Origin: Candidatus Nanohalarchaeota archaeon
GTDB lineage: Archaea > EX4484-52 > B79-G9
DNA length: 24,364 nt
Direction of reading: 5' to 3'
NCBI GenBank assembly: GCA_017610525.1
Contig: JAFCBW010000002.1
Span: 1 to 24,364 of the forward strand
This document shows positions 20,182 to 24,284 of the stretch, piece after piece. Positions within the stretch are counted from its first letter, which is position 1; each line of letters begins with the position of its first letter. Both the position numbers and the translations under genes were made by a program. Below the pieces are notes generated by a model. It did not search any database, was not told the DNA's origin, and saw only the letters and a list, made by a program, of their open reading frames with translations.

Positions 20182-21006
20182 TTATATTTCTTTGTTTTTT
20201 ACCACCGAACAATGGTATCCTCCCAACTCATCAACCATCGCATACGCATTATGCGCATGAATCGACTCAAAATTCTCACACTCAACCTTAAACCCCGAAA
20301 CCCCCTTCACCTTGCGCAGCTTCAAAACAACCTCACGCACAACATCCTCAACAAACATCGGCTGCGCATACATCTTCTCACACACCGCCTTCTCATCCTC
20401 ACGCTTAAGCAAAGAAAAAACCTCCGAACTGCAAGACCCCTCAACAACCTTGATGACATCCTCAATCCACACAAACCCGCCGCACCGGACACGCACAGTA
20501 ACAACCCCCCTCTGGTTATGCGCCCCATTCCCATTCCCGCAAATCTCCTTAGAACAAGGGCAAAGCGTAGCAACCGGCACCTTAACCTCAATCATAAACA
20601 AAAAATCCCGACAAAAATCACCAAAAAAAGCGCAGTCATACTTCATAACACTCTTCTTGCCCGAAACCGGCGCCACCTTCTCAACAAAATAAGGAAAACC
20701 AACAACAACGTGCGAAGAATCAGCACAAAGCCTCTTGCGCAGCTCAACAAGCATCCTGCGAACAACATCCCCACCAAAAACCTTTCCCTGATACTCATTC
20801 AAAACCTCGATAAACCGAGACATATGCGCACCGCGAAACTCATGCGGCAAATCAACAAAACAATCAACAGACGCAGAAACATGCTGAAACCTATTCACCT
20901 TATCCTTAATCTTAAGCGGCAAAGAAACCCCCCTGACACCGACCTTATCAATACCAACCTCCCTCTTATCACCATACCCTTGCACATCAGCCAGCTTATC
21001 AACCAT
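20182..21006 (-). CDS. folE2: GTP cyclohydrolase IB (FolE2/MptA family)
   Basis: IDKVGV, GAHMSRF, TLCPCSKEI, HNQRG, LLKREDE, FVEDVVR and ESIHAHNA. Start moved to MVDKLADVQ, which has a GAGGTG RBS. Confidence 0.93.
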   Translation of the reverse strand: MVDKLADVQGYGDKREVGIDKVGVRGVSLPLKIKDKVNRFQHVSASVDCFVDLPHEFRGAHMSRFIEVLNEYQGKVFGGDVVRRMLVELRKRLCADSSHVVVGFPYFVEKVAPVSGKKSVMKYDCAFFGDFCRDFLFMIEVKVPVATLCPCSKEICGNGNGAHNQRGVVTVRVRCGGFVWIEDVIKVVEGSCSSEVFSLLKREDEKAVCEKMYAQPMFVEDVVREVVLKLRKVKGVSGFKVECENFESIHAHNAYAMVDELGGYHCSVVKNKEI

Positions 21007-21016
21007 AAAAAACACC

Positions 21017-21559
21017 TCACTTACAATACTCCACCGGATCAGAAACCCCGGCCTCAGCAAAACCTTTAAGCCGAAGCTGGCACGAATCACACCACCCACA
21101 CGCCTTACCGCCAACAGGAGAATAACAGCTATGCGTCAACTCAATCGGCGCCCCCTCCTTAACAGCCCGAAGAACAATCTCCTTCTTAGACATCTTCAAA
21201 AGCGGCGCAGCAATCCTAAACCCACCGCACTTAGTCCCAAGATTCATAACCTTCTCAAAAGCAGAAAGAAACTCACCACGGCAATCCGGATACCCCGAAT
21301 AATCAACAGCATTAACCCCGACAAAAACATCATGCGCACCAACAACCTCAGCCCAGGCAGTAGCAAATCCCAAAAGTATAGCATTCCTAAACGGCACATA
21401 AGTGACAGGAACCCCATCATCAATCTCCCTGTCCTTCGGAACATCAATATCATCAGTAAGCGCAGAACCCCCTATCTGCCGCAAATCAATCTCAACAACC
21501 TTATGGCACATCACCTTAAGCCTTTCAGCAACAGCCAAAAGCACAACACATTTTTTCAT
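21017..21559 (-). CDS. queC: 7-cyano-7-deazaguanine synthase QueC with an internal in-frame deletion of the PP-loop region (possibly inactive)
   Basis: Retains [22 protein letters not shown] and the Zn motif SCY...[15 protein letters not shown] runs straight into AVAERL, with no SGGxDS or FxYGQ. Confidence 0.85.
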
Positions 21560-21561
21560 AA

Positions 21562-22236
21562 CTACACACCTCTTTTATTACCCCAGATGACCTTATGCAA
21601 CTGCAAAAGCACCCGCACATCACAATCAACAAGCACCTCGCACCCCATAACCTTACCGCAAAGCCATCCAAGCCTCTTTTGATACTCAGGCATAGAACAC
21701 ATCCCGTCCGGCTGCAAAACAACCTTACCTCTCACAAAAGCCTTATACTTTTCAACAACAGACACCACTTCCAAAAAATCATCATCATCACACACAACAA
21801 ACTTCACCTGCACATTATCTAAATTTAGATAACTCTCAAGCACCCCCTCATCATACCCCTCGCCGCTCGAAGAAAGCTTCGGCGACACAGAATACAAAAA
21901 AACAAACTCATCAAGCCTTTCATCACGCACAGTACAATTAGTCTCAACCGTAACCTTCTTACCGCGCAAAAAAAGCCCCCGGCACAAATCATAGACATCC
22001 TGCAAAAGCGGCTCACCGCCGGTAACGCACACATACCCGCAATTTACCTTAGAAACAACCTCATCCACACTCGTCTCAACACCGGGCGCATCAAGCGCAA
22101 ACTTAGTATCACACCACCGGCACTTCAAATTACACCCCGCAAGCCGGACAAACGTATGAGGCAAGCCCATAAGCTCACCCTCGCCCTGGACAGAATCAAA
22201 AACCTCAACAACCCTAAGCTTACCCTTTGCCATCAT
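21562..22236 (-). CDS. queE: 7-carboxy-7-deazaguanine synthase QueE (radical SAM)
   Basis: [28 protein letters not shown] and QLHK. The start overlaps the queD 3' end. Confidence 0.93.
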
Positions 22237-22567
22237 ACTCCACCCACGAATGCACACCCTCCCACAGCCGGACACAACAAAGCGCCGGCAACTCCTTCTT
22301 AACCTCATCAAAAATCCACACAACCATATTCTCAGCCGTGGGATTAGAAAAAACATCATTCAGATTGGCATGATCCAGCTTATCAACAACAACCCTATTA
22401 ACAACTTTCTTGACATGCGAAAAATCAACAACCATACCGCTCTTGCCAACCTTTCCGGAAACAACAACCTCAAGCTTGTAAGTATGCCCATGCAGGTTGG
22501 CGCACTTGCCATCATACCCCGACAGAAAATGCGCAGCATCAAAATAAAACTCACGACAAATCCTCAT
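22220..22567 (-). CDS. queD: 6-carboxy-5,6,7,8-tetrahydropterin synthase QueD
   Basis: FDAAH, CANLHGHTY, LDH..LN, PTAEN and LWE. Confidence 0.95.
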   Translation of the reverse strand: MRICREFYFDAAHFLSGYDGKCANLHGHTYKLEVVVSGKVGKSGMVVDFSHVKKVVNRVVVDKLDHANLNDVFSNPTAENMVVWIFDEVKKELPALCCVRLWEGVHSWVEYDGKG

Positions 22568-23037
22568 GCTTCACCACCCCGCGAAAACTCACAAGCCTCA
22601 TAAGGCATGACAATCCACTCACGCCCAACCTCAGACGCGCAAAAATCAACATCAATCGCGCACCCTTCCTTCCTGAAAACCGCAGCAGTCAAGACATTCA
22701 GCCCCAACTCATCCTCAAAAAAACTCTTAACAGCCATAAACGTACCGCCATGATCAGCAATATCATCCACAATCAAGACCTTCCGACCGACATCACCGAC
22801 AATCGATACCCTCTCATCCACAACAACCTTGCCCCCACTATTCACCTTCCCGACATCATAAGACCTCGCACTGATAACACCCAAAGGCAGCCCTAAAGCA
22901 TCAGAAAGCATCCTTCCGACAACAAGCCCGCCCCTGTTGATACACACAACAGAATCAAAATCCTTATCCTTCAGCTTACCAGAAAGCGCATGCGTAAGCT
23001 CAAAAAACTCATCCCACGAAACCTTAATCATATTCAT
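22564..23037 (-). CDS. Type I purine phosphoribosyltransferase (Gpt/HGPRT-like)
   Basis: INRGG, PRPP loop VLIVDDIADHGGT and C-terminal WIVMPYE. ATGA overlaps with both neighbours. Confidence 0.88.
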   Translation of the reverse strand: MNMIKVSWDEFFELTHALSGKLKDKDFDSVVCINRGGLVVGRMLSDALGLPLGVISARSYDVGKVNSGGKVVVDERVSIVGDVGRKVLIVDDIADHGGTFMAVKSFFEDELGLNVLTAAVFRKEGCAIDVDFCASEVGREWIVMPYEACEFSRGGEA

Positions 23038-23207
23038 CCACCTTCAATTCTCCCATGCCGCCTGTCAACCTCATCAAACTGGTCAAGCATCTTACGAAGC
23101 GCAGTCCTCACGGCATCCGAAAAATTAACAAATTTTTTGTCATCCCCCACATGCGCACGCACATCATCCACAATCTCCTGCGGAATCTCAACACAAACCT
23201 TCGCCAT
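23034..23207 (-). CDS. Ribbon-helix-helix (CopG/MetJ/Arc-like) transcriptional regulator
   Basis: Beta strand KVCVEIP, then a helix, then NFSDAVRTALR. GGGTGA RBS favours 23207, with 23222 as the alternative. Confidence 0.8.
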   Translation of the reverse strand: MAKVCVEIPQEIVDDVRAHVGDDKKFVNFSDAVRTALRKMLDQFDEVDRRHGRIEGG

Positions 23208-23295
23208 CACATCACCCTGCATACATCAAAATTAACAATTAACCATTACATCCAAAAACGAAATATTCTCCCAGCCATACTACAAGAATACCCCG

Positions 23296-23320
23296 ATAAT
23301 ATTATAAACTTTTCGAAAAG
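23296..23320 (-). promoter_or_regulatory. BRE/TATA promoter of the RHH-que operon, overlapped by two palindromes
   Basis: The minus strand reads GAAAAG-TTTATAAT. Perfect palindromes CTTTTCGAAAAG (23309-23320) and ATAATATTAT (23296-23305). Confidence 0.6.
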
Positions 23321-23363: not shown

Positions 23364-24284
23364 TCACATACACTTCTTCTTAGCAGTATAACCCAAAACA
23401 CAAGACGCCGCAATAAACCCCTGGTACATAGCAGGCATAATAAGCTTCTGCCTCTCCCTCGTAACATCCCCTGCAACAAAAACCCCACCAACCGTAGTCT
23501 CAAGCGTCCCTTCATCATAATCAATATTCAAATCACTCCCCACCTTAAGACCGATATCCCGAAGAAACTTCGTATCCCTGACAGTACCCGCAAGCACAAA
23601 AACATCATCAACCGCAATCTCATCCAAAGAACCATCTGCACCCTTCAAAACAGCTTTCTTACCCTTGAACTCAACCACATTACTCGAAAACCTGACCTCA
23701 ACAGAACTCTGCTCAAGCTGCTCCAGGTTAAGCTCCTTCACCCGGAAAAACTCACTCTTCCTATACGACAACACAACCTTAGCCCCAAAAGAAGAAAGAC
23801 TAACCGCAGCCTCAATCGCCACATCCCCTCCTCCGACAACCAAAACCCTCTGACGCGCATACTTCTTCAAACCATTAAGCGCATAATGAACATTCTTCCC
23901 ATCCTCACCCGGCACCCCAAGCTTGCGCGCAACACCCTGTATGCCGACCGCAACCAAGACCGCCAACGACCTAAAAACTCCCTTTTCAGTACCAACCTCT
24001 AAATATTTGCCCACCCTCTTCACAGAAACAACCCTCTCACCCTCTCGCACATCAACCTGCGACCTCACAAGATCCCTCCTGTAAAACTCAACCAGCTCAT
24101 CAGGCGATCCCTGGAAAAACCCGGCAACCCCAAACATCTTCTTCCCTTCATGATAATCAGCAATCGTATTCGCAACAACTCCCTGCTCAAGAACAAGCGC
24201 ATGCAGGCGAAGCTCCCTGCACCGGACCGCACACGAAACACCCGCAGGTCCCGCGCCGATGACAATCACATCAAATACCTTCAT
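23364..24284 (-). CDS. Thioredoxin-reductase-fold FAD/NAD(P) oxidoreductase lacking the CxxC (YpdA/FNR-like)
   Basis: VIGAGPAG, second dinucleotide site VVGGGDVAIE, YRK and FVAGD. HYAL occupies the usual CxxC position. Confidence 0.8.
   Translation of the reverse strand: MKVFDVIVIGAGPAGVSCAVRCRELRLHALVLEQGVVANTIADYHEGKKMFGVAGFFQGSPDELVEFYRRDLVRSQVDVREGERVVSVKRVGKYLEVGTEKGVFRSLAVLVAVGIQGVARKLGVPGEDGKNVHYALNGLKKYARQRVLVVGGGDVAIEAAVSLSSFGAKVVLSYRKSEFFRVKELNLEQLEQSSVEVRFSSNVVEFKGKKAVLKGADGSLDEIAVDDVFVLAGTVRDTKFLRDIGLKVGSDLNIDYDEGTLETTVGGVFVAGDVTRERQKLIMPAMYQGFIAASCVLGYTAKKKCM

Follow-up and report, generated by a model that had tools for sequence, protein, structure and literature searches.

We describe a phosphoribosyltransferase (PRTase) gene that stands among the que genes of the 7-deazaguanine pathway in an archaeal contig of 24,364 nucleotides, which as a whole is called the window below. 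The solved enzymes most similar to its product are the hypoxanthine-guanine-xanthine PRTase (HGXPRT) of S. solfataricus (4Z1O, 4ZFN, 5BQO) and PH0095 of P. horikoshii (1VDM), which are its best profile and fold matches at 26-30% identity. The three proteins have in common the size class, the phosphoribosyl pyrophosphate (PRPP) binding motif with a third Asp, a Lys after beta-strand 5, the base-binding end W-I-x-x-P-[YW]-[ED] and a mobile loop with a Tyr. The que-linked clade to which the archaeal PRTase belongs differs from HGXPRT and PH0095 in having C126, V130 in place of the family Pro, M144 in place of Phe and a loop II sequence of its own. To our knowledge, the genes of HGXPRT and PH0095 have not been described as part of que operons. 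Gpt of E. coli and Yersinia (1A95-98, 1NUL, 5XTK; NCBIfam model NF006613) shows a template modelling (TM) score of about 0.7 and 20-22% identity to the PRTase. While the PRTase studied here is que-linked, Gpt-type loci of cellular genomes are not: in a survey of 80 such loci none of the 79 outside this genus, nearly all of them bacterial, had que neighbours, and a general linkage between gpt and que genes was therefore rejected.

Another precedent comes from Streptomyces. TubE, encoded in the tubercidin cluster, is a proven PRPP transferase specific for 7-carboxy-7-deazaguanine (CDG), and its authors aligned it with S. solfataricus 4Z1O. A biochemical precedent of the kind invoked by the original prediction for this DNA, which had named ToyH, thus exists in an enzyme of the same fold family, and the kinship of TubE to the archaeal PRTase is known solely through that alignment. 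The tub and toy clusters combine a PF00156 PRTase with homologues of GTP cyclohydrolase, QueD and QueE, and so does the archaeal operon. On the other hand, these clusters encode further enzymes, one similar to GMP reductase, a UbiD decarboxylase or PurA/B-like enzymes, and either a phosphatase or a Nudix hydrolase, together with a LuxR regulator and a transporter; none of these is found in the archaeal operon. As a further difference, this archaeon has a TgtA, which gives 7-cyano-7-deazaguanine (preQ0) an obvious destination in tRNA.

The archaeal locus is a run of six genes on the minus strand, read from 23207 to 20182, and consists of the following features, in the order of transcription:

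23255..23314, minus strand: putative promoter and operator, 5' of the first gene (conserved block with an inverted repeat)
23034..23207, minus strand: ribbon-helix-helix (RHH) protein, CopG/CdrS-like, 57 aa, first gene of the operon (weak NCBIfam CdrS match)
22564..23037, minus strand: type I purine PRTase of the archaeal HGXPRT/Gpt family, 157 aa (PF00156, 1.7e-16)
22220..22567, minus strand: QueD, 6-carboxytetrahydropterin synthase, 115 aa (PF01242, 2.2e-37)
21562..22233, minus strand: QueE, 7-carboxy-7-deazaguanine synthase (radical SAM), 223 aa (Radical_SAM, 8.6e-9)
21017..21559, minus strand: QueC without its PP-loop, 180 aa (PF06508, 1e-53)
20182..21006, minus strand: GTP cyclohydrolase FolE2, 274 aa (PF02649, 9e-86)

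The span runs exactly from the RHH start to the FolE2 stop, and the predicted order RHH-PRTase-queD-queE-queC-folE2 is that of a real operon. Its tight spacing, as read from the sequence, also stands, with overlaps or gaps of at most 10 nt: the RHH/PRTase and the PRTase/QueD junctions are ATGA overlaps, QueD and QueE overlap by 14 nt, and gaps of 2 nt and 10 nt separate QueE from QueC and QueC from FolE2. The six genes probably form one regulated operon and are transcribed together. The window is contig C29 of an archaeal metagenome-assembled genome (MAG) of 1.28 Mb in 206 contigs, 81% complete. That the window belongs to an archaeal chromosome is indicated by its genes for AglB, FEN1, an IF-2B-like protein and HycI.

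We lean, with modest confidence, towards reading the PRTase as a canonical enzyme for guanine, xanthine or hypoxanthine, which closes a loop that leads from guanine through GTP and preQ0 to tRNA and back to guanine. The preQ0 made by the operon would go to TgtA, a tRNA transglycosylase of the archaeosine type whose gene lies elsewhere in the genome. The PRTase would convert free guanine or xanthine and PRPP to GMP or XMP, and GuaA together with nucleotide kinases would raise these to GTP, the substrate of FolE2. TgtA would expel one guanine for each preQ0 inserted, and one GTP would be spent for each preQ0 made. Since the guanine expelled would match the GTP spent one to one, a salvage enzyme within the operon would close a purine-neutral loop, and such a loop would matter because the organism seems unable to make GMP from IMP. 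If the enzyme is canonical, the operon would exemplify a modification module that is self-contained and purine-neutral, in an archaeon with a reduced genome and no route from IMP to GMP, and there would be a simple account of the phage Gpt-like genes that ride with 7-deazaguanine genes, that is, recycling of the expelled guanine. The original prediction had named guanine salvage as the mundane alternative; it has gained from the hallmarks of the active site, from the PRTase being the sole 6-oxopurine enzyme of its kind found in the genome, from the missing IMP dehydrogenase, from the Hpt of sister genomes and from the lack of tailoring genes in the window, and it is from these that we infer the specificity.

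The strongest argument for an ordinary 6-oxopurine job of the que-linked PRTase is a complementary pattern within the genus. The genomes with the que-linked PRTase, namely this MAG (G000), G002 and G003, have no Hpt, and G004, G006 and G007 lack both the operon and the que-linked PRTase and encode a classic Hpt instead (TIGR01203, 175-186 bits). In this MAG the PRTase is the sole 6-oxopurine-type PRTase found, the other genes with a PRT fold being Apt, PyrE, PRPP synthase and a ComF-like protein. We found no genuine IMP dehydrogenase or GMP reductase in six genomes of the genus (G000, G002-G006), and in this MAG there was no match to PF00478 at all. GuaA (about 510 aa) is present in four of the five genus genomes searched. 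With GuaA present and no IMP dehydrogenase found, XMP and GMP would have to come from base salvage only. The genus can probably make IMP: PurF was confirmed in G003, and ORFs of PurF size with a PRT domain occur in five further genomes of the genus. The PurA of this MAG is the single PF00709 match, full-length and of the housekeeping type, and lies on another contig.

The guanine in question would be released because TgtA is present: its gene is on contig C183 of the same genome and scores 485 bits, above the equivalog cutoff. It was claimed that the window has no tgt, arcS or dpdA, which we can confirm. A search of the genome for tgtA, arcS, dpdA and toyE found TgtA on C183 as the sole gene of the TGT family and, at the given completeness, no DpdA, no toyE-like gene and no ArcS beyond cross-matches to TgtA; QueF family members, YhhQ and a second TGT/DpdA-family gene were likewise not found in it. 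As TgtA takes the free base, the statement that the archaeosine route needs no PRTase is supported as well.

Next, we consider the PRTase itself. In its homologues the start corresponds to the second Met (23031). Of the NCBIfam models, Gpt (NF006613) fits best, with 58.1 bits against a cutoff of 138, and the scores for Hpt (TIGR01203, 33.3 against 150) and HPT_Archaea (NF040646, 30.9 against 200) are below their cutoffs too. The protein is therefore a divergent member of this branch of the superfamily, and none of the curated models has it as an equivalog. When the PDB was searched with a profile, the matches were 4trb (2.5e-31), 4z1o (2.5e-27) and 1vdm (8e-25). The structure model has a mean confidence (pLDDT) of 87, and the confidence is low only at residues 62-66, where a mobile loop would lead one to expect it. 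Against S. solfataricus HGXPRT (5bqo) the model has a TM score of 0.82, against 1vdm one of 0.79-0.84 and against E. coli XGPRT one of about 0.7. Profile and fold searches also group it with the adenine PRTase (APRT) of S. solfataricus.

The PRPP-binding motif is VLIVDDIADHGGT, in which D91, D92, G97 and T99 vary little or not at all within the clade. The DDIAD motif is kept in all 11 members of the clade, and this includes D95 (11/11); at this position the Apt of the same genome has Ala (DDLLATGGT) and PyrE has Ser (EDLISTGGS). The last Asp of the motif, the acid/base at N7, is typical of 6-oxopurine PRTases, and the roles of this Asp, of the Lys at O6 and of the stacking Trp are established from work on HGPRT and XGPRT. 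Equally invariant in all 11 members are K123, W141 and E147, whose counterparts lie in FAK and TWIEQPWD for E. coli Gpt, and in YLK and KWIIFPWD for 4Z1O; together with D95, they correspond to K115, W134, D140 and D92 of the E. coli enzyme. The catalytic loop II, SARSYDVGKVNSGGKVVVDERVSIVGD, is of full length and contains the Ser-Tyr pair, with Y60 invariant. Judged by its residues, the PRTase retains every hallmark of a 6-oxopurine enzyme (DD-x-x-D, Lys at O6, stacking Trp and full loop).

In a tree of 135 family members, which is a quick tree with moderate support, cellular archaeal PRTases surround the que-linked archaeal clade (SH-aLRT 97). The sampled clusters of these cellular PRTases come from MAGs of Thermoproteota, Heimdallarchaeota and Korarchaeota; one of these clusters is labelled hypoxanthine PRTase by a source. 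Ten members of the family with a length of 190-200 aa, looked up by cluster, yielded archaeal proteins only. The family includes several fusions, for example with a ThiS/Urm1-like domain (P0092, P0094) or, in P0029 (975 aa), with a double ABC ATPase and a second PRT domain, and P0021 has tandem PRT domains.

Several observations weigh against canonical guanine salvage. The amount of GTP that tRNA modification draws is small, and a need to feed the pathway would therefore explain co-transcription poorly. With the Gpt equivalog model the PRTase falls far short of the cutoff, and TubE, of the same fold family, is specific for CDG. The substitutions C126, V130 and M144, which are invariant and particular to the clade, adjoin the base pocket, and D74, G81 and D82 are likewise invariant residues of the clade's own within the catalytic loop; such changes in pocket and loop may permit an altered specificity, although they do not demonstrate one. 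The complementary pattern of Hpt and PRTase rests on six related genomes that are 68-91% complete. In our sample of the phylum, 42 genomes from a single order, no 6-oxopurine PRTase was detectable in 33 genomes, and TgtA is present in 33 of the 42, from which it follows that neither the recapture of guanine nor such a PRTase is generally required in the phylum. Finally, gain and loss have affected the PRTase and the que genes as one block, and this is the pattern of a pathway-specific enzyme.

Genes for the four enzymes of the original preQ0 gene set lie in the operon, and the description of QueC needs a correction. QueD scores 111.7 bits against TIGR03367 (cutoff 89.25) and FolE2 255.7 bits against NF010200 (cutoff 215). 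For QueE, the top NCBIfam matches are four QueE models with 73-120 bits, all below their equivalog cutoffs, and the translation shows the CxxxCxxC motif. QueC matches only positions 46-209 of the Pfam profile, and positions 1-45, which include the SGGxDS PP-loop, are gone. Compared with two genomes of the same genus, the gene has a clean in-frame deletion of 117 nt (39 codons) that appears as a gap of 117 columns in the DNA alignment, with the junction at about 21537/21536; the lost segment, SGGLDS...YGQRH, contains the ATP-binding PP-loop, and the C-terminal Cys cluster is retained. G003 and G002 have a full-length QueC with SGGLDS, and QueC is also intact in the loci L018 and L021. Since these relatives have it intact, the deletion is not part of the conserved design. 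The ratio of nonsynonymous to synonymous substitution rates (dN/dS) of the truncated gene, 0.25 against G003, is not above that of its neighbours and is uninformative with regard to inactivation. Taken as assembled, the genome should let the pathway proceed no further than CDG; this would not hold if the deletion were a minority variant or an error of the assembly. The 38 nt past the junction are more diverged than the remainder of the gene.

The linkage between the PRTase and the que genes is conserved. The complete order RHH-PRT-queD-queE-queC-folE2 is found also in G003, G002 and contig L018, and the same order runs to the contig end in the metagenomic contigs L020 and L021; in G005, QueE is at a contig end and the PRTase side is cut off. 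PRTase and queD are adjacent in all five related loci with enough contig, at PRTase identities from 91% down to 52%, and the linkage proposed originally is thus kept within the lineage. The enzymes of the operon are under purifying selection (dN/dS 0.2-0.3). Within the 42 genomes of the phylum, QueE occurs in only four, all of this genus; most relatives presumably scavenge preQ0, which this subgroup makes. A search of the phylum for more carriers of QueE led to the same 42 genomes and nothing new.

An exhaustive profile search of 1.8 billion representative sequences returned only two clusters (at 50% identity) above 230 bits, and the next matches reach at most 170 bits. These next relatives (P0017, P0018 and P0015 from Thermofilaceae) are not que-linked. 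One of them, P0018, a near relative outside the clade (L138 476-1529, L139 41-1094), overlaps the start of the gene for DHBP synthase (RibB), which is a link to another GTP-related pathway, that of riboflavin.

It is possible, though in our opinion doubtful, that the PRTase resembles ToyH or TubE and uses PRPP to turn preQ0, CDG or 7-amido-7-deazaguanine (ADG) into a free 7-deazaguanine ribonucleotide. Such a product might be built into nucleic acids, for which it would be a precursor, or it might be retained for storage or be a metabolite. The fold family of TubE, represented by 4Z1O, is the closest to this PRTase, and there are changes particular to the clade near the base pocket. The known archaeosine route has no need for a PRTase, and yet translational coupling ties the gene to queD, and within the phylum it is found only alongside que genes. 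On the other hand, Asp95, which is directed at N7, never varies in the clade, and yet a 7-cyano or 7-carboxy group would press against it. The operon has no GMP-reductase-like, PurA/B-like, kinase, Nudix or HAD partner, neither a PF00478 protein nor DpdA was found in the genome, and without a canonical PRTase of this kind it would be left with no route to XMP or GMP. Tailoring genes of the ToyE/F/G, UbiD, kinase, Nudix or HAD type were not found anywhere in the 24-kb window. The deazapurine nucleotide proposed originally is therefore neither demonstrated nor refuted: that a PRTase is a coupled member of a real operon and that the fold family offers a precedent speak in its favour, whereas the canonical hallmarks and the missing tailoring genes do not.

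Part of the case for a deazapurine nucleotide comes from phages. Out of 73 viral contigs that encode relatives of the PRTase, 27 have QueC, QueD, QueE or FolE2 within 6 kb, as compared with none of the 79 cellular gpt loci outside this genus, and this recurrence is independent. Among 50,697 phage records, the named, cultured carriers of a homologue are Campylobacter CP220-like phages, Cellulophaga phiST-like phages and Flavobacterium phage immuto only, and two further homologues are unannotated and come from human faecal metagenomes. The phage homologues are located as follows:

MW353175.1, 31931-32326: phage PRTase homologue
KC821604.1, 50280-50708: phage PRTase homologue
MT932329.1, 142119-142532: phage PRTase homologue

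The CP220-like and phiST-like phages and immuto are the three groups reported to replace all deoxyguanosine (dG) by a 7-deazaguanine. In immuto, the PRTase gene lies between queE and folE, followed by genes for a nucleoside triphosphate (NTP) pyrophosphohydrolase and dpdA (queE-PRT-folE-NTP pyrophosphohydrolase-dpdA), with a thymidylate kinase gene nearby. Other clusters have the order FolE2-PRT-QueC (L141, L146) or QueC-PRT-QueD-QueE (L189), so that the PRTase stands among preQ0 genes as it does in the archaeon. DpdA belongs to the phage clusters, in some cases along with an NTP pyrophosphohydrolase or a kinase, while the archaeal operon has none of these and serves tRNA. Moreover, the phage PRTases form separate clades and most have no loop II, whereas the archaeal enzyme has the full loop. 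A common origin of the archaeal and the phage que-linked PRTases was rejected, with moderate support, by the quick tree, in which the archaeal ones fall into a cellular clade of 56 rows (SH-aLRT 98); since the phage clades are separate, the pairing of PRTase and que genes arose more than once. We also had to reject a shared deazapurine signature, as C126, V130 and M144 are each found in 0-5% of the phage set, and the lack of a common signature between archaeal and phage enzymes counts against the deazapurine reading.

The phage data fit both a route at the nucleotide level and, equally well, recycling of the guanine that DpdA expels from DNA, since this guanine stoichiometrically matches the GTP need of the pathway. 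In the literature searched we found no paper that joins DpdA or phage 7-deazaguanine with a phosphoribosyltransferase: a paper from 2023 on phages that replace all dG mentions none, and a genome-mining preprint from 2026 covers bacteria only.

Taking archaea, phages and the TubE of Streptomyces together, one may tentatively propose that a PRTase of the Gpt/HGXPRT family is a recurrent and so far undescribed accessory of 7-deazaguanine pathways that makes the ribonucleotide of the base, although we would call this generalisation doubtful, too. If it is true, this archaeon would keep a pool of free 7-deazaguanine nucleotides beside the tRNA route, and a nucleotide-level step, unmentioned in the literature searched, would be supported for the phages that replace all their guanine. 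A PRTase acting on preQ0 or CDG would be the first archaeal route to free 7-deazaguanine nucleotides, and the question touches archaea, phages and antibiotic producers alike.

We regard it as unlikely that the linkage is an accident, in which a housekeeping PRTase was inserted before queD in an ancestor of the lineage and has no functional tie to preQ0. The que-linked clade is indeed narrow, being limited to the two clusters above 230 bits, its next relatives are not que-linked, and the flanking synteny shared by the linked loci points to a single evolutionary event. Against this, the translational coupling persists even where PRTase identity has fallen to 52%, the PRTase comes and goes with the que genes, and the same pairing has arisen independently in several phage clades and in the tub and toy clusters of Streptomyces. 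Least probable of all, and in our view rather improbable, is that the protein is mainly a sensor in the manner of the known PRT-fold regulators PurR, PyrR and GfcR, reading PRPP or a guanine-type ligand and setting the expression of the operon together with the RHH protein: the RHH and PRTase genes always co-occur and overlap by ATGA, there is a conserved inverted repeat upstream, NCBIfam gives weak matches to regulators (purR_Bsub for this PRTase, GfcR for the Apt of the genome) and the structural neighbours include a ppGpp-bound protein similar to Gpt (5vog), but all catalytic residues and the mobile loop are intact, a nucleic-acid-binding surface is not apparent, the RHH protein alone suffices for DNA binding and, on this reading, no 6-oxopurine PRTase would remain in the genome.

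The first gene of the operon probably encodes its autoregulator. The RHH protein had no match in Pfam and matches NCBIfam CdrS at 3.6e-7 with 30 bits, which is below the cutoff; it is 98% identical to its orthologue in G003 and 87% to that in G002, and its dN/dS of 0.05-0.08 is the lowest of the operon. Upstream of it, the block at 23255-23314 would be the operon promoter with an operator for the RHH protein. It contains the BRE/TATA-like sequence AAAAGTTTATAAT, whose TATA occupies about 23308-23301. It also contains an inverted repeat, AATATT(A/C)TC, the arms of which lie at 23295-23303 and 23262-23270. The block GTTTATAATATTATCGGGGTATTCTT and, downstream of it, GAGAATAT are kept in four orthologous loci despite diverged flanks. 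An Rfam scan of the window gave no match at the gathering threshold, that is, no riboswitch or other known RNA.

Upstream of the operon, at 23364-24284, there is a gene for a YpdA/TrxR-like flavoprotein disulfide reductase, which appears to be a separate transcription unit; its position is kept in G002, L018 and L020 and not in G003. The window as a whole (1-24364) has an extreme strand bias, with a GC skew of -0.2 to -0.57 and an AT skew of +0.16 to +0.49 on the plus strand. A comparison of loci (L013, L014, L109, L111, L113, L114) has shown the bias in members of the genus both with and without the que genes, and it was not seen in loci from other genera of the phylum; a tie between this bias of G/T against A/C and the operon was rejected, since members of the genus that have no que genes share it. 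The bias is independent of gene direction, and the mean absolute GC skew across the MAG is 0.24.

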